Positions 22,497 to 57,222 of a stretch of DNA of 57,222 bases are shown here, piece by piece. The first letter of the stretch is position 1. Each line of letters begins with the position of its first letter. The notes beneath the pieces are model-generated. The model saw only the letters and a program-made list of their open reading frames with translations. It was not told the origin of the DNA and did not search any database. The position numbers and the translations under genes are program-made. Source of the DNA: Candidatus Nealsonbacteria bacterium (GTDB lineage Bacteria; Patescibacteriota; Minisyncoccia; Minisyncoccales; GWA2-38-27); the NCBI GenBank assembly GCA_030617105.1, contig JAUWWC010000003.1:1-57222 (forward strand). The letters are read 5' to 3'.

Positions 22497-24013
22497 TTAC
22501 ATCTTTTCTGGGCTGGAAAGACCCATTAAATCTAAAGTATTTTTAAGAATGCTTTGAGTTGCCAAAATCAAAGATAATCTGGCTTGGCTTAATTCTTTAT
22601 CTTCAGTAAGAACTCTGCAGTTTTTATAAAACTTATGAAAACTCTCAGCTAAATCAATAGCATATTGCGGTATTCTCTGAACCTGATAATCTTTTGCAGT
22701 GTCTTCAATAATTTCTGGAAACCTAATCAACTGCTTAATCAAATCTAATTCGCTTGAATGATTTAGCAATTTTGAATTTTGAATTTTGAATTTTGAATTT
22801 GTTTGTAATTTGGAATTTGTTATTTGGGATTTCTTAAGTATGTTGCATATTCTTGCATAAGCGTACTGTACATAATAAACAGGGTTTTTCTGTGACTTTT
22901 CTTTAGCTAAACTTAAATCAAAATTCAAATGACTCCCCGAATTTCTTGTTAAAAAGAAAAACCGAGCAACATCCAATCCAACTTCATCAATTAATTCTTC
23001 CAGGGTTATATAAGTACCTGTTCTTTTGGACATCCTGACCTGCTTGCCTTTTTCAAAAAGCCGAACCATTTGCATAATAATAAAATCTACCTGTTCTTTC
23101 TTATAACCCAAAGCTTTAACCACGGCTTTCATTCTTCCTATATATCCATAATGATCAGCTCCCCAAAAGAAAACTAACTTGTCAAAACCTCTTTTAAATT
23201 TATTCTTTAAATAAGCAATATCAGAAGAAAAATAAGTTTTCTCGCCATCTGCTTTTACTAATACCCTATCCTTATCATCTCCAAACTTGCTTGATTTAAA
23301 CCACAAAGCCCCTTCTTTTTCATAAGCTAATTTTTTCTTTTTCAGCCAATTCAAGATTTTATCAACTTCCTTGCTTTTATACAAACTATTTTCAGAAAAC
23401 CAAACATCAAACTTAATTTTTAGTTTTTTTGTAATTATTTTTTGGTTTTCTTTTTGAATTTGCAAAGCTGTTCTCTTCTCGCCTTTGTAAAGGCCTTTTT
23501 TCAAATCTTCTACTTGTTTACCACGATCGTTAACATAAAACTCGCGAAATACATTATATCCTGCTTTTTCTAAAACATTTGACAAAACATCTCCGCAAAA
23601 CCCTCCACGTCCATTTCCCAAAGTCAAAGGACCAGTAGGATTTGCTGAAATAAATTCAACATTTATTTTTTGCCTTTCCCTATTTTCAAATCTCCAAACT
23701 TCTCTTTTTCTTTCAAAATGTTCCCTACTTGCTTTTGCAAATACTTTCTTGAAACAAAAAAATTAATAAAACCCGGCTTAACAACTTCGACTTTGTCGAG
23801 GAATTTCGAATTTCGAATTTCGAATTTCGAATTTATTAAATTGGCTATCTTCATTGGATCTTCTTTTCCAATTACCATCGCCACATTCGTGGCATAATCC
23901 CCGTGTGTTTTTTCTCTTGGTTCCTCAACCAAAACTCCAGAAACCTTAAATCCAAGTTCCTTTATCGCTTTTTCTACTAATTTTCTAATATCATCCCTAA
24001 TCATTATTTCCAT
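22497..24013 (-). CDS. argS: Arginine-tRNA ligase, split by a 1-nt frameshift in an A6 run at 23666-23671
   Basis: 5' ORF has HGDYATNVA and PGFINF; the -1 frame continues INVEFISANPTGPLTLGNGRG...MSKR...YVQYAYAR...PEKM. Confidence 0.93.
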
Positions 24014-24067: not shown

Positions 24068-24144
24068 CTTGACAGATTTGAGAATATGCGATAAACTGTA
24101 AATATCGTGAAAAACTAAAATAGCAACTTAAAAATTTGAAAGGA
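24068..24144 (+). repeat. Promoter/leader direct repeat, family 1, copy 1
   Basis: 76/77 identical to 25022-25098; contains TTGACA-17-TAAACT and GAAAGGA. Confidence 0.95.
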
Positions 24145-24155
24145 GGTGCTTTACA

Positions 24156-24961: not shown

Positions 24962-25021
24962 ATATTATTTATTACTAACTATTTTAATTTTATCAAAACC
25001 CAAGAAATAAGTCAATAAAAA

Positions 25022-25098
25022 CTTGACAGATTTGAGAATATGCGATAAACTGTAAATATCGTGAAAAACTAAAATAGCAACTTTAAAATTTGAAAGGA
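25022..25098 (+). repeat. Promoter/leader direct repeat, family 1, copy 2
   Basis: 76/77 identical to 24068-24144. Confidence 0.95.
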
Positions 25099-25103
25099 AA
25101 GAA

Positions 25104-25422: not shown

Positions 25423-25872
25423 ATGAAAATCTTAGCTGAAAATAGAAAAGCGAGGTTTGATTATGAAATCCTGGAAAGGTTTGAAGCAGGCATGGTTTTG
25501 ATTGGCCAAGAAGTCAAATCAATAAAATCAGGAAGAATGAGTTTAAAAGGCTCTTATGTGACGCTAAGAGGAGAAGAGCCGTATTTAGTCGGAGCTAATA
25601 TCCCTGCTTATCAGCCAAAGAACATTTCTCCGGATTATGAGCCAGAGAAACCAAGAAAGCTTCTTCTGAATAAATCAGAAATTAAGCATTTAATCGGTAA
25701 AACAAAGGAAAAGGGCTTGACTTTAGTGCCCTTAAAAGTGTATACTAAGAAAGGAAAAATAAAGCTTGGGTTTGGAATAGGAAAAGGAAGAAAGAAAGCT
25801 GATAAAAGAGAATTAATTAAAAAAAGAGAAACAGAAAGAGAAATAGACAGAGAATTAAAATCACGGGGATGA
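25423..25872 (+). CDS. smpB: SsrA-binding protein
   Basis: NRKARFDY, EAG.VL.GQEVKS, RKLLL and DKRE motifs. Confidence 0.97.
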   Translation: MKILAENRKARFDYEILERFEAGMVLIGQEVKSIKSGRMSLKGSYVTLRGEEPYLVGANIPAYQPKNISPDYEPEKPRKLLLNKSEIKHLIGKTKEKGLTLVPLKVYTKKGKIKLGFGIGKGRKKADKRELIKKRETEREIDRELKSRG

Positions 25873-35862: not shown

Positions 35863-37482
<1,620 letters not shown>

Positions 37483-37489
37483 TTATAAA

Positions 37490-37777
37490 TTACTCAATAA
37501 TTGCTAATATATCTTCTTCTTTAGCAATCAAATATTCTTTATCGCCGACCTTTATTTCATTTGGACCATATTTGGTAAATAAAACTTTGTCTCCTGGTTT
37601 TACTTCCAAAGGAATAACTTTTCCAGCTCTTTTTTGACCTGGGCCAACAGCAATCACCCGGCCTTGTTCAGGTCTTTCTTTCTCAGCTGTGTCTGGAAGC
37701 AAAATCCCAGCTTTTGTTTTTTCCTCCTCTTTTATCGGCTCAATTAATATATGATCAGATAATGGTTTAATGTTCAT
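37490..37777 (-). CDS. groS: Co-chaperonin GroES
   Basis: IKPL.D, GILLPDTA.KE.P..G.V.AVG.G. Confidence 0.98.
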   Translation of the reverse strand: MNIKPLSDHILIEPIKEEEKTKAGILLPDTAEKERPEQGRVIAVGPGQKRAGKVIPLEVKPGDKVLFTKYGPNEIKVGDKEYLIAKEEDILAIIE

Positions 37778-37788
37778 AAAATTATAAT

Positions 37789-37862
37789 GCGAATCTACGA
37801 ATGATATACGAATGTTGCGAATAATTTATTCGCGGCATTCGCATTTAATTCGCGTCATTCGG
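37789..37862. repeat. Mirror array of 4x CGAAT then 4x ATTCG in the groES leader
   Basis: CGAAT at 37790, 37798, 37809 and 37818; ATTCG at 37828, 37837, 37848 and 37857. Confidence 0.85.
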
Positions 37863-37934
37863 ATTATGTTATATTTTTTAATATCTATCATTTTACCCAC
37901 CCAAAGATATTTGTCAAGTCTTTGTCAAGCCCTA

Positions 37935-37976
37935 TCAAAAAAACAGCCCCGAAATCAATTTATTTGATAACGGGGC
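37935..37976 (-). terminator. Cassette terminator, family 2, copy A
   Basis: 27 bp (37935-37961) identical to 39075-39101; gccccg...cggggc stem with T-run. Confidence 0.75.
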
Positions 37977-37987
37977 CGCGTTCCTAT

Positions 37988-38293
37988 TTAAACAAGGCTT
38001 AAAAATAAAGCTCGCTCAAACTCTTCTAGGCTGCAATTGATCTTTACTTCCACTGGATCCGATATGTGAGAATCTATCGAGACTGAATTCTCTTGGTAAT
38101 CAATGGTAATAGTTATTTTTTCTTCTCCTAATTCATAAACAACTTCCTCTTTTTTGTTTGTTAAAACGTCCTTAAGCGCCAGTTTTGGGATGCTCCTGAA
38201 TTTTGTTTCGATACCCATGACGCAAAACCTAAAACGAATCATAGAGTCTATGTCAACACGTCGAGTTCCATTTTGTTGATCTCTTACTATCAT
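37988..38293 (-). CDS. Hypothetical protein; start MIVRDQQ
   Basis: AAGGAG SD within the repeated leader precedes ATG 38293. Confidence 0.7.
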   Translation of the reverse strand: MIVRDQQNGTRRVDIDSMIRFRFCVMGIETKFRSIPKLALKDVLTNKKEEVVYELGEEKITITIDYQENSVSIDSHISDPVEVKINCSLEEFERALFLSLV

Positions 38294-38298
38294 TTCTG

Positions 38299-38391
38299 AT
38301 CTCCTTTTATTAAATTTTGAAATTACATTACATACAGCAACGCACTGCAATGTTTATACACTATCACACATCCCTGCTCCTGTCAAGCCCA
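38299..38391 (-). repeat. Promoter/leader direct repeat, family 2, copy A
   Basis: 85/93 identical to 39695-39787; TTGACA-17-TAGTGT and AAGGAG. Confidence 0.93.
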
Positions 38392-38801
38392 GTTTGATTT
38401 TCGGGAGTAATTTCGATAGTACCTTTAGAATGTATAAATTTAACTCTAAACAAATTAAAAAATCCTTTTTGTCCTAAAATCCCAAATCCATGAGGGCTAA
38501 TCTCGTAAGAAAAACCAGCCATAATATTATAGCGCCAGCCACCAATCTCAAGGGTTAAATTATGAAGATAAACTTCAAACGGCTCTCCAGCTATCCCGCT
38601 GAATTCCATTTTCTTCCCAGAACGAATATCAATACCAAAAAGCTCTCCAATTTCCGCATTAAAGATATTAAAATCAGCTCCTGAATCAATTAATGCCTCA
38701 TATTTAATTATTCTTCCATTATATAAAAGCCCAATCGGAATGATTGGCTTTAATAATTCTGTGCCATCAGCTAATCTAAATTTCTTATAGCCAAAACGCA
38801 T
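38364..38801 (-). CDS. Retropepsin-like (clan AA) aspartyl protease
   Basis: ALIDSGAD catalytic motif and ILG..GFF motif. Confidence 0.85.
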   Translation of the reverse strand: MRFGYKKFRLADGTELLKPIIPIGLLYNGRIIKYEALIDSGADFNIFNAEIGELFGIDIRSGKKMEFSGIAGEPFEVYLHNLTLEIGGWRYNIMAGFSYEISPHGFGILGQKGFFNLFRVKFIHSKGTIEITPENQTGLDRSRDV

Positions 38802-38807
38802 ATCAAT

Positions 38808-39020
38808 TTAAGAAATAAAAGAATTTCCCCCTACATAGGGTAAAACAGTAATGGGAACTTTAAAAAGAATTGGGCATTTATATCCTTCTTTTTTGGCCTT
38901 CTCTAAAGTTTCCTTGGCAGAGTCATCAAAAGAAATTACCTTTTTTTCGTCCTCACTAAGGGCCACCCATTTCCCTTTATATTTTTTAGCAATTTCTGTA
39001 AAATCAAGTATTTGTTCCAT
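38808..39020 (-). CDS. DUF5678-like small protein, partner of the protease
   Basis: KKY.GKWVA......V........E....A...G...P..F.VP pattern. Confidence 0.8.
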   Translation of the reverse strand: MEQILDFTEIAKKYKGKWVALSEDEKKVISFDDSAKETLEKAKKEGYKCPILFKVPITVLPYVGGNSFIS

Positions 39021-39074
39021 AATTTTATTTCATTTTAATTTTAACAAATATTAGAAGACAAAGTCAAGTACTAT

Positions 39075-39117
39075 TCAAAAAAACAGCCCCGAAATCAATT
39101 TGTCTGATTTGAGGGCT
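39075..39117 (-). terminator. Cassette terminator, family 2, copy B
   Basis: Shares 27 identical bp with 37935-37961; agccc...gggct stem. Confidence 0.7.
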
Positions 39118-39131
39118 TATTGCTTTTTAAG

Positions 39132-39689
39132 CTATTTAATCTTTAGCAATCCTCGCAATTCTGGGATAGACATTTTGTTATAGCCAGCTCTTAAAACAAA
39201 ACTCTGTCTTTCTACGTCAAGTTCCTCTCTTTCTTTTTTGCTCATTGATTCTTCAAATCCTAGGTCGCATCGGAAAAGTCCCTCTCTTATCAATTCACAT
39301 TTTTCTGTACACGCTGAGTAACCGGCCACAAGTTTATCCGTTTCATCTAAAACAATTTCATCTTCTTTCGACCAAGCAGGTATGCAAAAAACTAAAATTT
39401 TAGTTACCTCTCTTGGAATAAAATAATGAGCTGTATTGGGTGGAATAAGTATTAATGTTCCAGCTTTTATTTCATAAACGTTGGCTCCTATAACCAACTT
39501 CCCCTTGCCTTCAATGATAAAATAAAACTCAGTTGTAATTTTATGGTAATGAGAAACACCGGGAGCACTCATTGTAACTAAGGCTGTGCTTGCTTTGTCA
39601 AAATCTTGTTTTGAGCTTAATACTCTAATCTCCCCACAAATATCTTTTATTGGCTGAACTTTCTCAACAGATATCACAATCTCTTCCAT
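39132..39689 (-). CDS. Cupin domain protein
   Basis: HYH...TEFYFIIEG.G...G......PPNTAH. Confidence 0.85.
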   Translation of the reverse strand: MEEIVISVEKVQPIKDICGEIRVLSSKQDFDKASTALVTMSAPGVSHYHKITTEFYFIIEGKGKLVIGANVYEIKAGTLILIPPNTAHYFIPREVTKILVFCIPAWSKEDEIVLDETDKLVAGYSACTEKCELIREGLFRCDLGFEESMSKKEREELDVERQSFVLRAGYNKMSIPELRGLLKIK

Positions 39690-39694
39690 TATTT

Positions 39695-39787
39695 ATCTCC
39701 TTTTATTAAATTTTAAATTTACATTACATACAGCAACGCACTGCAATGTTTATATCCTATCACACATCCCCAGCCCTGTCAAGCCCA
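39695..39787 (-). repeat. Promoter/leader direct repeat, family 2, copy B
   Basis: 85/93 identical to 38299-38391; TTGACA-17-TAGGAT. Confidence 0.93.
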
Positions 39788-39801
39788 AGAAGCTAAGCTC
39801 T

Positions 39802-42483
39802 TTAGTTTTTAAAAAATCTTTTTCTTAAAAATTTGCCAGTGTATGATTTGGGATTTTTAGCTATTTCATATGGTGTTCCTTCGGCCACGATATATCCTCC
39901 TTTATCCCCTCCTTCAGGTCCGAGATCTATACACCAATCCGCGTTTTTAATAACATCTCCGTTGTGTTCCGAGCTTAAAATAGTATTTCCTTTATTAACT
40001 AACTCTCTTAAAACTTTAACCAATTTCTTAATATCATCTGGGTGAAGACCAGTTGTTGGCTCATCTAAAATGTATAATGTTTTGCCAAAGGATTTCCTGG
40101 AAAGCTCAGTTGCTAATTTTACTCTTTGGGCTTCACCTCCAGACAAAGAAGGAGCTGGCTGACCAAGCTGGATATATGATAAGCCAACTTGATTTAATGT
40201 TTTTAATTTAGAGTAAAGTCCAGGAATATTCTTGAAGAAATCCAATGCCTCTTCATTTGTCATTTCTAAAACTTCAGCAATATTTTTACCTTTATACTCA
40301 ATTTCAAGCGCCTCTTTATTATATCTCTTGCCTTTGCATTCCTTGCACTCAACATAAACATTTGGAAGAAAATACATTTCAACTTTAATCTGACCCTGAC
40401 CCTCACAGGCCTCGCATCTTCCTCCCTTAACATTGAAACTGAACTGACCAGGTAAATAACCTCTAACTCTAGCTTCCCTGGTTTTTGAAAAAAGCTCCCT
40501 TATATATGAAAAAGCGCCAGTGTAGGTTGCAGGATTAGAACGAGGAGTTCTGCCAATCGGTGACTGGTCAACTAAAACAACCTTGTTTAAGGATTCAATG
40601 CCTAAAATCTTCTTATGCTTTCCTGGTTCTTGTTTTGCATGATAAAACTTCTTAAGCAATGCCCTGGCTAAAATATCATTCATTAAAGAACTCTTGCCAG
40701 AACCAGAAACTCCAGTTATACAAACAAATTTACCCAAGGGAATTTTAACATCAATATTTTTAAGATTGTGCTCGGCTGCTCCTTTGATAGCTAAATAATT
40801 AGTCTTGGGTTTTTGGTCTGAACGGCCAATTTCTACTTTCTTCTTTCCAGATAAATATTGACCTGTTAAAGTTTTTGACTTGAGCAGCTGTTTAGGTGTC
40901 CCTTGAAAAATAACTCGGCCTCCATCTTTTCCGGCTCCGGGACCGATATCAATAATCATGTCAGATGAAATAATTATTTCGTACTCGTGCTCCACTATAA
41001 TTAGTGAGTTACCTAACTCCCTTAATTTTTTCAAACTTTCAATTAATCTTCCTTGGTCCCTGGGATGAAGACCAATTGAAGGTTCATCTAAAATGTATAA
41101 AACTCCTGTTAGTTTTGAACCAATTTGAGTAGCTAATCTTATCCTCTGTTCTTCTCCTCCAGCTAAAGTAGCAGCTTTCCTATCCAAAGTTAAATAATCA
41201 AGCCCAACATCAATAAGGAACTGGAGGCGAATAAGAATTTCTTTAACTATTGGCTGAGCAATTTTAGAAAACTCTTTCTCAAATAAAAGCCTTGTTTGAT
41301 TAATTGGCATCTCTACTATTTCATCAATTGACTTGCCCTCTACTTTCACTGCTAAAACTTCTGGTTTTAATCTTTTGCCCAAACATTTAGGGCATTGTCT
41401 TTTTACCATATACTGTTCAATCTCCTGACGAGTCCAGTCAGAATTAGTTTCATGATACTTTGTTTCAAGATTAGATATTACACCCTCAAAACTATTATCT
41501 CCATAAAGAACAATATTCAATATCTTTTTTGGTAAACTCTCAATCGGCTCATCTAAAGAAAAATCATATCTATCTGCCAAACCAGAGAGCTGATGTAAAG
41601 AACGAAAAGACATAATTGCTCCTTCAGCAATAGTTAGCTTTGGGTTTGGAATAAGCAATTCTGGATCAATTCTTAATTTCTCGCCCAAACCAGTACAAAC
41701 AGGACAAGCACCATAAGGACTATTGAAAGAGAAAAGACGTGGCTCTAATTCAGGAATAGAAATGTTGCATTTCTCGCAAGTAAAATTAGTGCTGAAAACT
41801 GAATCGTTGACAACAACGCTACCTTTGCCTATTTTTAAACCTATTTCCAAAGAATCTTTTAATCGCGATTTATCCAAATCTTTATTAATTATCAAACTAT
41901 CTATCACTACTTCAATATTATGATATGTCTTCGGCACCTCTCCAATAGCACAAATTACCCTATCGGTTCTGACTCTGACAAATCCTTTTCTTTTAATCTG
42001 TTCTAAAGAATAATTTGTTGGCGCTGAAATAATAATTTCTGTTTTCTTAACAAATTTCAGAATTTGTTCAACTATTTGATTAACCGTTTGTTGTGAAATT
42101 GGCTTTCCACACTTTGGACAATGTGGCTTTCCAGCCCTTGCAAATAAAAGACGGAGATAATCATAAATCTCCGTTATAGTGCCAACTGTAGAACGAGGGT
42201 TATGCCCTGCTTTTCTCTGGTCAATAGAAATAGCTGGACTAATTCTTTCAATCTTTTCAACATTTGGCTTATCCATTACTCCCAAGAACTGCCTGGCATA
42301 AGTAGATAAACTTTCAACATATCTTCTCTGACCCTCAGCGTATAGAGTATCAAAAGCCAAAGAACTCTTGCCAGAACCTGAAATTCCGGTAATCACTACT
42401 AATTTATTCCTGGGAATATCAACATCAACATTCTTCAAATTATGCACTCTTGCCCCCCGAATTTTAATAACATCCTTTCCCAT
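39802..42483 (-). CDS. uvrA: Excinuclease ABC subunit A; start [10 protein letters not shown]
   Basis: GARVHNLKN, two GxSGSGKS Walker A motifs, zinc fingers, LSGGEAQR. Confidence 0.98.
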
Positions 42484-42558
42484 AAGTAATCCATTATACA
42501 TCAAAGCAGGAAAGAATTCAATATTGACTCTTTTAGGAAATTCTGATAACATATATTA

Positions 42559-56347: not shown

Positions 56348-57178
56348 TTACTCCTCTGCCAGCAATCCTCTCTCCCTGGCTCCTTCCACGTATAGTTTTC
56401 TAATCTGCGCTGAACTCAGGGATTGTTCGTAGATCCGGACATCGTCGATTGTGCCGCTGAAATGAGACTGGTCAGCATAATATCTTCCGATAAAAAGATT
56501 GCGGGTATTGGTAAGGTCATAATCGAGAACACTACTTCTACTACTATTCAATGACCCATCAATATACCATTTTACTTGTGAGGCATCTATAGTCAGAACA
56601 TAGTGATGCCAACCAGCGCTTATAGAACCATCTGTATAAAGACCTCCTGCATTCCCAACAGTTCTTAACTTCCCATCTGTTTCAAGTCTCCAATCTATTC
56701 CATTCCACGCACCACCATTATAAGAAGTTTTAGTGAAGAAAATTTGCTCTGATGCGGGAGTTATATCATTTGCTTTCATCCACATTTCTACGCTTACAGG
56801 GTTATTGCCCCAGTGAAATATCTCATTATCTACAACCTCCACATAATCATCCACGCCGTCAAAACTCAACGCATAACCTTTTCCACTTGGGGTATCTCCT
56901 TCTGCAGTCCAAGTAGCTCCATTAATTGTTCCGTCATTACCATAACCGCTGGCATCTGCTGTGGGGTCTGCTTGGTCGTCAAAATCCCAGATTCCTACTG
57001 CATAAGCACCTAAAGCGTGATGCACGCTGGCACTGAATTGAAGCCCTTTGGCTATTCTTGCTTTTTCTCTGGCTGATCTGGTAGCTACTAATACAATACT
57101 TGCTATAACACCAATAATAGCTATTACTACTAATAATTCAATGATGGTAAATGCCCTTTGGTTTTGAGTTTTAAACAT
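56348..57178 (-). CDS. Type IV prepilin-like protein with a LamG/concanavalin domain
   Basis: A|FTIIELLVVIAIIG N-methylation motif; ALSFDGVDDYV, WHH, YIDG and F.G.IDDVRIY LamG motifs. Confidence 0.9.
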   Translation of the reverse strand: MFKTQNQRAFTIIELLVVIAIIGVIASIVLVATRSAREKARIAKGLQFSASVHHALGAYAVGIWDFDDQADPTADASGYGNDGTINGATWTAEGDTPSGKGYALSFDGVDDYVEVVDNEIFHWGNNPVSVEMWMKANDITPASEQIFFTKTSYNGGAWNGIDWRLETDGKLRTVGNAGGLYTDGSISAGWHHYVLTIDASQVKWYIDGSLNSSRSSVLDYDLTNTRNLFIGRYYADQSHFSGTIDDVRIYEQSLSSAQIRKLYVEGARERGLLAEE

Positions 57179-57222
57179 CTTTTTTGCGTTAAGCCTGGCT
57201 TAACGCAATATATCATTTGTTA

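Follow-up and report, generated by a model that had tools for sequence, protein, structure and literature searches.

The DNA analysed here is a stretch of 57,222 nucleotides (nt), referred to as the window, from a Candidatus Nealsonbacteria bacterium (contig JAUWWC010000003.1 of assembly GCA_030617105.1) whose genome, called G000 below, amounts to 543 kb in 17 contigs and is 96% complete. Between the uvrA and groES genes of this window, two unrelated small genes are each preceded by a copy of the same putative promoter and leader and followed by a copy of the same putative intrinsic terminator, and a gene pair coding for a DUF5678 protein and a retropepsin-like aspartyl protease lies between them. 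The repeated regulatory DNA is called the shell, and the genes that it surrounds are called cargo; promoter and terminator activities of the shells are predicted from their sequence. All coordinates of this block are window positions, and its genes read on the minus strand. From uvrA to groES, the features are as follows.

39802..42552, minus strand: uvrA, 916 aa, an open reading frame (ORF) forming the left housekeeping flank; 61-75% identity (tblastn) to uvrA in seven family loci
39687..39787, minus strand: promoter/leader copy A, a repeat with TTGACA, 17 nt, TGA-TAGGAT, a leader of ~60 nt, AAAGGAG and ATG
39132..39689, minus strand: cargo 1, a cupin-domain protein of 185 aa (Cupin_2, 3.1e-11)
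39076..39117, minus strand: putative intrinsic terminator T1, a hairpin plus T7, including the invariant 22-nt core
39038..39067, minus strand: putative promoter of the DUF5678/protease pair itself, with TTGACT, 18 nt, TAAAAT and a TG (promoter scan 10/12)
38808..39020, minus strand: DUF5678 protein, 70 aa (PF18929, 1.9e-10), partner of the protease
38364..38801, minus strand: retropepsin-like aspartyl protease, 145 aa (Asp_protease_2, 3.6e-5), the last nine codons of which are promoter copy B
38291..38391, minus strand: promoter/leader copy B, a repeat of copy A with the -10 hexamer TAGTGT
37988..38293, minus strand: cargo 2, a rare protein of 101 aa, an ORF without a family
37935..37979, minus strand: putative intrinsic terminator T2, carrying the same 22-nt core as T1
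37923..37932, minus strand: extra -35 box GGGCTTGACA, a possible stub of the shell, or of a terminator/groES-promoter junction like those of the related loci L089 and L095
37890..37917, minus strand: putative groES promoter, with TTGACA, 16 nt and TAAAAT (promoter scan 11/12), of the type that abuts uvrA in the related genome G016
37780..37875, minus strand: palindromic ATTCGC-rich repeat of ~96 nt, inserted in the groES leader and outside the shells
37490..37777, minus strand: groES, an ORF forming the right housekeeping flank, with groEL beyond

On balance, we read this 1.9-kb stretch as a stack of three independent transcription units within the uvrA/groES junction. The first would comprise a sigma-70-type extended -10 promoter, a leader of ~60 nt, a Shine-Dalgarno (SD) site, the cupin gene and T1; the second, its own promoter and the genes for the DUF5678 protein and the retropepsin-like protease; and the third, the second promoter/leader copy, the rare 101-aa gene and T2. 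In all, the block contains two terminators and three promoter-like sites that are separate from one another. The GC content of the cargo (0.30-0.37) shows no compositional anomaly next to that of the flanks (0.34-0.40). The original prediction, made from the sequence alone, had described two cassettes on the minus strand that share a promoter, leader and terminator around unrelated ORFs, and every element that it listed was recovered by reading the sequence, its ORFs, its repeats and its Pfam matches. This includes the recurrence of GGGCTTGACA at 37923-37932. It had also seen no recombinase in the window, and we likewise found none at the locus and no such ORF between 35 and 43 kb.

The repeated shell and its cargo

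The two promoter/leader copies, A (39687-39787) and B (38291-38391), align over 101 nt with 11 mismatches (89% identity), and the shared 93-bp unit proposed earlier is thereby real and slightly longer than claimed. Homology begins 3-4 nt ahead of the -35 hexamer and fades at the start codon. A similar ribosome-binding context is generic in this genome (19 of 20 nt recur at C11:3115-3134, for example), and for that reason the apparent homology up to the ATG is not read as a precise joint. Blastn against the genome gave six other matches to the promoter/leader, all of them partial, at most 32 nt long and confined to the A/T-rich ribosome-binding part; because just two full copies exist and the remaining matches are partial, the resemblance of the pair is not ascribed to chance. 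Copy A (10/12, with a TG before the -10 hexamer) is, together with the groES and DUF5678 promoters, one of the three best promoter-scan sites in the stretch.

Two other identities were considered for the promoter/leader and set aside. A riboswitch or other known cis-regulatory RNA is ruled out by the absence of any Rfam match below E 3.9 in 37400-40000 and by a leader hairpin that is weak in both copies (z -1.2 and -0.45) and differs from that of the related contig L092 described below. Derivation from the groES promoter is not supported either, as the similarity is confined to GGGCTTGACA(A/G)GG and its score was reached by 83 of 500 shuffles.

The terminator repeats (39075-39108 and 37935-37968) are 94% identical over 34 nt and contain an identical stretch of 27 nt, as had been claimed. 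T1 folds with -15.0 kcal/mol (z -2.8) and T2 with -24.1 kcal/mol (z -5.1). A spacing of 5 nt separates T2 from the GGGCTTGACA downstream of it, and one of 7 nt separates T1 from CTTGACT, which belongs to a 10/12 promoter match. A 20-nt core of the terminator, TTGATTTCGGGGCTGTTTTT, was searched with up to two mismatches in 39 genomes of the family, and was found in two copies each in G000 and G001 and in a single copy in G017, at this locus only and with 0 mismatches in all five copies. Exact-match scans retrieved 12 matches from metagenomes, eight of which are related contigs, and 13 from a genome collection, two of which are relatives and 11 of which belong to unrelated taxa; the invariance of core copies obtained in this way is by construction. 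The single match in viral contigs has an unrelated context. When nine contexts were aligned, only the 22 columns of the core were invariant and the 5' arm of the hairpin, upstream of it, differed; the shared sequence therefore begins in the hairpin loop. The core flanks inserted modules on both sides.

The two cargo ORFs had been said to lack similarity, and a BLASTP comparison of the cupin protein with the 101-aa protein bears this out (E = 41); homology of the cargo, which would have pointed to simple duplication and divergence, is thus not seen. Moreover, every pair of cargo proteins compared across shells gave an E value of at least 0.47. The 101-aa protein has no Pfam family below E 0.029 and no cupin family match at E up to 1. 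It was its own sole match in a word-indexed search, while a full scan of 1.84 billion representatives yielded one collinear homologue of 101 aa (34% identity, E 1.6e-6), as well as weak matches, repeated along the sequence, to a pair of giant proteins of which one is rich in fn3. The ESM Atlas was uninformative for this protein (best score 0.79), and NCBIfam gave nothing useful for any of the four proteins of the block. For the cupin protein, there is one near homologue only, with 70% identity.

The pair between the cassettes is better represented in databases. The protease reaches 24.8 bits with Asp_protease_2 against a cut-off of 24.3 (E 3.6e-5) and has 264 homologues at E up to 1e-5, the nearest of which (about 72-86% identical) are mostly 136 aa long. 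In an alignment of 11 sequences, nine of the ten homologues stop after ...E[IL]xxExx, at 136-142 aa, and the tenth, P0061, continues with an unrelated tail. The G000 protease runs nine residues further, TGLDRSRDV, and these are encoded by promoter copy B, so that the reading of the protease ORF into the repeat, noticed at the outset, is confirmed by the alignment. Since the protease ends in codons of copy B while its homologues stop earlier, the joint must have removed the native stop codon, and a loss of this kind would mark an illegitimate rather than a site-specific event.

The DUF5678 and protease genes are co-oriented and 6 nt apart in G000, and they are neighbours in both of the other genomes examined: G005, where gyrB immediately precedes the pair and the two genes share 4 nt, and G042, where they again have the same orientation. 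The pair thus behaves as a portable two-gene module. Over its full length, the protease matches the PADLOC defence-candidate family PDC-M52B (E 4.6e-6), and PADLOC gave no match for the DUF5678 protein. A model of the complex, built from shallow alignments, scored 0.83, against 0.33 for the best of three controls; the mark applied to such models is reached by 58 of 80 solved complexes and by two of 110 mismatched pairs. Three runs share at least 80% of the contacts, the pLDDT of the partner is 83, and the modelled contacts include residues 39 and 41 of the protease, in its DSG motif, and residues 49-61 of the DUF5678 protein. The model supports, as a prediction, binding of the protease by the DUF5678 protein and makes it plausible that the two form an inhibitor/protease pair acting like a toxin-antitoxin module, a role that we infer here. 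No sign of a phage-borne pair was obtained from viral contigs, in which 35 pattern matches to the protease family were found and none was confirmed; the literature searched on DUF5678 and on PDC-M52 held nothing relevant. We regard the pair as a concrete candidate for a toxin-antitoxin or defence module that would be new.

A relative of the promoter/leader occurs on the metagenome contig L092. Over 35 nt, its promoter has 31 identities with copy A and 30 with copy B, and no shuffle out of 500 attained either score. By eye, its longer leader shares GTAAATTTA(A/C)AATTT and the start context TCAGAAATGA with copy B, and its leader hairpin differs from that of the G000 leader. The gene behind it codes for a polytopic Rce1-like membrane protein unrelated to either G000 cargo (E at least 0.7). 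From these comparisons, L092 carries a third, diverged copy of the shell with a third unrelated payload. That only two copies of the shell exist, an outcome that would have spoken against gene shuffling, thus holds within the genome and is softened beyond it.

The uvrA-groES junction and comparable sites

The groES gene was found in 37 of the 39 family genomes, and the DNA upstream of it was compared in 20 genomes and two same-genus loci, giving 22 loci. In seven of these 22, uvrA lies within the compared stretch; the uvrA-groES gap is about 50-190 nt in six (G016, G010, G025, G006, G014 and G013) and about 1 kb in G009. A tblastn search of the 22 loci at E up to 1e-3 recovered no copy of any of the four cargo genes. 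A contig of a relative in sequencing run X4 likewise joins the start of groES to the end of uvrA, with about 127 nt between them. From this comparison, the whole 2-kb block is an insertion into a normally tight uvrA|groES junction. By eye, the last uvrA codons of G010 and G025 (loci L060 and L065) spell the groES -35 box (TACTTGACA), and the uvrA stop codon of G016 (L056) overlaps that box; in cargo-free relatives, uvrA and groES would accordingly be fused at the regulatory level.

In other relatives, the site is occupied by different DNA, arranged as follows.

G001, L097 and L099: uvrA, hairpin, core, own promoter, ORF of 94 aa and DUF2283 protein (5.2e-15), core, groES promoter
L089: core, partner and HicA (3.3e-8), hairpin and core, groES promoter
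L095, left part: uvrA, hairpin, AATTGA, then 3 kb with a 162-aa membrane protein and a 658-aa Cys-rich HExxH protein
L095, right part: AATTGA, remainder of the core, groES promoter; the core is thus interrupted behind AATTGA, and 6 nt are duplicated
L092, first part: AbiEii/DUF6036-like nucleotidyltransferase, promoter of the G000-shell type, Rce1-like membrane protease (1.6e-12)
L092, second part: terminator with a T1-type 5' arm and core, then the G001-type pair
G002: C-terminus of an rve-family transposase and a contig end (G002:C20; L027, L018), directly upstream of the groES promoter
G017 type: DUF4143 ATPase, gene fragment, core, hairpin, groES promoter

A comparison of the uvrA-groES interval among relatives, which the original prediction had proposed, thus reveals different cargo or empty sites, and the fixed cargo that would have argued against shuffling is not observed: the site is variable in at least six haplotypes. 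No two of the haplotypes seen have the same content at this hotspot, which is located between two essential genes. Cargo that differs from one to the next is delimited by the terminator core in G000, the G001 type, L089, L092 and L095. The rve transposase C-terminus at the groES promoter of G002 indicates that an insertion sequence (IS) element occupies the same hotspot. No recombinase was seen at or near the locus in any of these haplotypes. The 658-aa Cys-rich protein of L095 (5604-7580, minus strand), which is encoded beside the 162-aa membrane protein, has an HETLH motif and a weak match to the M6-metalloprotease domain (E 0.0021).

Several joints at this site are imprecise. The right end of the G000 block runs from T2 through GATAGGGCTTGACA to AAGACTTGACAAAT, with the -35 box doubled (37917-37932). 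The terminator stands right beside the groES promoter in L089 and L095, and the G000 right end would be a junction of the L089/L095 type fused to a groES promoter of the G016 type. In addition to the doubled -35 box, the lost protease stop and the split core of L095 with its 6-nt duplication are imprecise. Recombination joints at the -35 box, as originally suggested, are supported, and further joints lie in the terminator loop.

The arrangement is not restricted to this junction. A self-comparison of the genome gave 36 repeat families, several of which are local intergenic repeats ahead of unrelated ORFs with SD sites. On the plus strand of the window, two promoter/leaders of about 85 nt (24070-24155 and 25020-25103) differ by one mismatch and precede unrelated membrane-like ORFs of 90 and 79 aa, and between them, on the other strand, lies a pair encoding HicA (1.2e-17) and a DUF7387 protein. 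This unit sits between argS-like genes (22497-24013, minus strand) and smpB (25423-25872, plus strand), and its layout, "shell, ORF, toxin-antitoxin pair, shell, ORF", is that of uvrA|groES. In G002 and G005, the orthologous argS-smpB site contains a single promoter/leader copy (85% and 75% identical, respectively) followed by other small ORFs, and in G001 it contains none. The arginyl-tRNA synthetase-like frame at 22497-24013 is itself in two ORFs, of 116 and 376 aa and about 35 nt apart, which could reflect a split gene, a frameshift or a mis-called start.

Arrays of other shells are found on further contigs. On C11 (1252-3767; L108, L003), four tandem intergenic units of 240-255 nt, 77-90% identical, each comprise a terminator, a conserved spacer of ~110 nt, a promoter and a leader, and precede unrelated ORFs of 71, 116, 66 and 117 aa. 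A compact terminator-promoter composite, in which AGAGGGTTAATAGCCCTCTTTTT is followed directly by TTGACA, is present in five copies at C10:22085-24627 and C17:3357-5017. A stereotyped 29-nt promoter with a conserved spacer, TTGACAAATTTAAATAGCGGGTGTATAAT, occurs in 17 copies genome-wide when up to six mismatches are allowed (none for the reversed control), mostly ahead of small ORFs near contig ends, and the promoter part of it is present in eight of the 39 family genomes, including G000. These other shell families have sequences entirely different from that of the uvrA|groES shell.

Recombination between shells and its alternatives

Taken together, these observations incline us towards the view that ordinary promoters and terminators serve as substrates for the homology-driven stacking and swapping of small accessory and toxin-antitoxin-like genes. 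According to this view, the shells would start and stop transcription as ordinary regulatory DNA, and their repetition would be both a trace and a substrate of recombination. Composite terminator-promoter DNA between genes would offer short homologies through which cassettes could be stacked, swapped and lost between co-occurring strains. The events may be homologous, Campbell-type or microhomology-mediated, and may proceed through the general recombination functions of the cell; exchange would probably follow DNA uptake, and no dedicated recombinase would be needed. We infer this pathway from the structures of the joints and repeats. The proposal that the regulatory shell was kept while the payload changed agrees with what is seen, namely homologous DNA around unrelated payloads. 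The further proposal of a gene-capture system is not demonstrated: the genome holds two copies of the shell, the locus has no recombinase, and the joints are imprecise.

Several observations weigh against recombination through the shells. The -10 hexamer of copy B, TAGTGT, is poor, and the promoter scan does not list this copy. Full promoter/leader copies in the 543-kb genome are these two only (blastn), and in 401 genomes of the order, the promoter pattern CTTGACAGGNNNNGGGATGTGTGATA has zero-mismatch matches at the two G000 sites only, with four further matches in three other genomes, each with three mismatches. Exact matching of a 22-nt leader core to the metagenome collection gave 0 matches, as did a 20-nt version of it in viral contigs. 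Gene conversion within the promoter/leader pair, for which the longest identical run is 36 nt, is not significant (P = 0.065). The evidence for ongoing exchange via the promoter/leader comes from one metagenome contig of 1.6 kb, L092, and homologies of 22-100 nt are short for RecA-type exchange. Sequencing data were checked as assembled contigs (Logan) of four runs, and neither a 1396-bp (promoter-promoter) or 1140-bp (terminator-terminator) deletion form nor a circle was found among these contigs, which drop rare forms. Finally, terminator function alone does not account for the identity of the 22-nt core beside a varying 5' arm, a combination that would also suit an attachment site.

Of the competing explanations, two concern the authenticity of the structure or the relation between the cargo genes. 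A mis-assembly, in which the contig was joined wrongly at the repeats and the two cassettes are not true neighbours, is very improbable. It would draw on the many relatives that share the flanks, on the depth in a source-like run (about 10 for the cargo, against a sum of 80-110 for the groES/uvrA flanks) and on the Logan contigs that break inside promoter copy A. However, positions 37837-39741 are matched without a single difference by an independent Logan contig of 1905 nt, which takes in T2 and the 101-aa gene, then promoter copy B and the DUF5678/protease pair, and lastly T1 with the cupin gene; a further contig, overlapping this one, continues into uvrA at a similar depth (13.3 vs 10.0). 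The promoter copies also differ at 11 positions and hence are not a collapsed repeat. In run X2, which belongs to another study, a 182-nt contig is identical to part of the cupin gene. The idea that the cargo ORFs are old paralogues around which the regulatory DNA was conserved is effectively refuted, given the E value of 41, the lack of a cupin match for the 101-aa protein at E up to 1, the incompatibility of 89% identical non-coding flanks with a complete loss of coding similarity, and a third cargo that is a polytopic Rce1-like membrane protein.

The remaining two concern the process. A one-off local accident, in which a single illegitimate duplication (promoter capture) put a promoter/leader and a terminator around a second gene, is unlikely, yet it would agree with the two copies in the genome, the lack of a further zero-mismatch copy among the 401 genomes of the order, the absence of the leader core from the metagenome and viral scans, and the rarity of both cargo genes. 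It is opposed by the diverged third copy on L092, with a third cargo and the same terminator type, by the same layout at 24.07-25.10 kb of the window, by the arrays of other shells on C11, C10 and C17, and by the variability of the site in at least six haplotypes. A dedicated site-specific system, integron- or island-like, in which the core is an attachment site duplicated by a trans-acting recombinase and the promoter/leader an expression platform for cassettes, seems to us less probable still. The core is identical in all five copies of the family scan, in which two mismatches were allowed, and flanks the modules of G000, L089 and the G001 type as a direct repeat with dissimilar 5' arms; the G000 genome also encodes one tyrosine recombinase (its sole Phage_integrase match) and one serine recombinase of 564 aa, both on contig C8, and no rve transposase. 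Nonetheless, no haplotype seen has a recombinase at or near the locus, and the joints are heterogeneous, as the split core of L095 with its 6-nt duplication, the lost protease stop and the doubled -35 box attest. The core is found nowhere else in the 39 family genomes, 11 of its 13 matches in the genome collection are in unrelated taxa, and the metagenome loci were found by exact match, which makes their invariance a matter of construction. Moreover, each cassette has its own promoter, unlike integron cassettes, and the other shell families of the genome use entirely different sequences.

Shell-mediated stacking can be compared with several known systems. Integron gene cassettes are small unrelated ORFs that end in a hairpin element with a conserved end, and toxin-antitoxin stabilisers are interspersed among them. 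The array described here is similar in that unrelated small ORFs each end in a hairpin-forming element with a conserved end and a toxin-antitoxin-like pair is interspersed, but no IntI integrase or attI site lies beside it, every unit is equipped with its own promoter, and it is joined imprecisely. Phage morons and defence or toxin-antitoxin islands are autonomous promoter-gene-terminator units that lie between core genes and vary by strain. Autonomous units and toxin-antitoxin or defence-candidate modules, varying by strain between housekeeping genes, are present here as well, but there is no prophage context, integrase or tRNA target, and the regulatory parts themselves are repeated.

The closest likeness is to the promoter-early stem-loop (PeSL) cassettes of T4-type phages, an analogy drawn in the original prediction, the anatomy of which fits: a stem-loop terminator abuts a sigma-70-type promoter. 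In the parts of the report of Arbiol et al. (2010, PMC2839356) consulted, PeSLs are composites of a stem-loop and a sigma-70 promoter that flank ORFans and recombine; crossovers can lie in the loop, and no dedicated recombinase is described there. As in that account (PMC2839356), a stem-loop terminator stands directly ahead of a sigma-70-like promoter at this locus, the composite is intergenic, and the repeats flank ORFan-like, non-essential genes in a variable region. Again as in the portions of that source considered here (PMC2839356), differences between close relatives, whether indels or replacements, are bounded by repeats, with empty sites in six family genomes, the crossover may lie in the loop, and no dedicated recombinase is seen. 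Many clustered copies per genome, by contrast, are not found for this shell, which has two promoter/leaders and two cores at one locus, against the dozens reported for PeSLs in what was consulted of that work. The host here is cellular, a member of the Candidate Phyla Radiation (CPR), with flanks of uvrA and groES/groEL instead of a T4-type phage, and the repeat extends through a leader of ~60 nt to the start codon. PeSLs yield mini-circles, according to the same parts of the report; none was observed for the shell described here among the assembled contigs, which drop rare forms.

Putative mobile promoters have been defined as upstream sequences with an identity of 80% or more across 50 nt or more, placed ahead of non-paralogous genes in one genome, with an unknown mechanism of mobility (Nijveen, Matus-Garcia and van Passel 2012, PMC3575422). 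The promoter/leader described here, with 89% identity over 101 nt ahead of neighbouring coding sequences that are non-paralogous, falls within this definition, and the search window of that study (-150 to -50) would catch half of the repeat (PMC3575422). It differs in that the terminator is reused too, the copies are neighbours in an insertion hotspot, and relatives carry other cargo at the site.

We class the finding as a cellular (CPR) variant of a known phenomenon, the reuse of promoters and terminators, at a hotspot of accessory genes, with the pattern repeated at several loci of the genome. A broader claim, which we regard as possible though doubtful, is that CPR (Nealsonbacteria-like) bacteria run a PeSL-like, recombinase-independent cassette economy. 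Portable adaptors would plug in, stack and swap ORFan, toxin-antitoxin or defence-candidate genes at hotspots beside essential genes (uvrA|groES, argS|smpB and the C11, C10 and C17 arrays), stacks would be kept stable by toxin-antitoxin-like pairs, and the adaptors themselves would move among strains and among genera. No published account of such an arrangement in CPR genomes was found in the literature searched, supplementary files aside. The genomes of CPR bacteria are tiny and contain few recognisable mobile elements, and little is understood of the ways in which these bacteria acquire and exchange accessory genes. If shell recombination were a general route, it would account for the expression-ready arrival of ORFans and of toxin-antitoxin or defence modules, extend a mechanism of T4-type phages to cellular genomes, and provide native promoter, leader and terminator parts for a lineage without genetic tools.

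Other repeats in the window and genome

A 12-member repeat family is located at contig ends, at 56348-57222 of the window and at the ends of contigs C2, C7, C12 and C15. Its members are paralogous prepilin-like proteins with an N-terminal FTIIELLVV motif and a large C-terminal domain, and these paralogues probably break the assembly.

The palindromic ATTCGC-rich repeat at 37780-37875, between the groES promoter and the groES start codon, forms a predicted hairpin of -30.5 kcal/mol and has a second copy, 91% identical, at C5:19936-20023. Contigs of relatives lack it at groES, where position 37778 is joined to 37873, and several family genomes contain multiple matches to it, with five to seven each in G015, G035, G053 and G038. 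It looks like a miniature mobile or repetitive extragenic palindromic (REP)-like element within the chaperonin leader.

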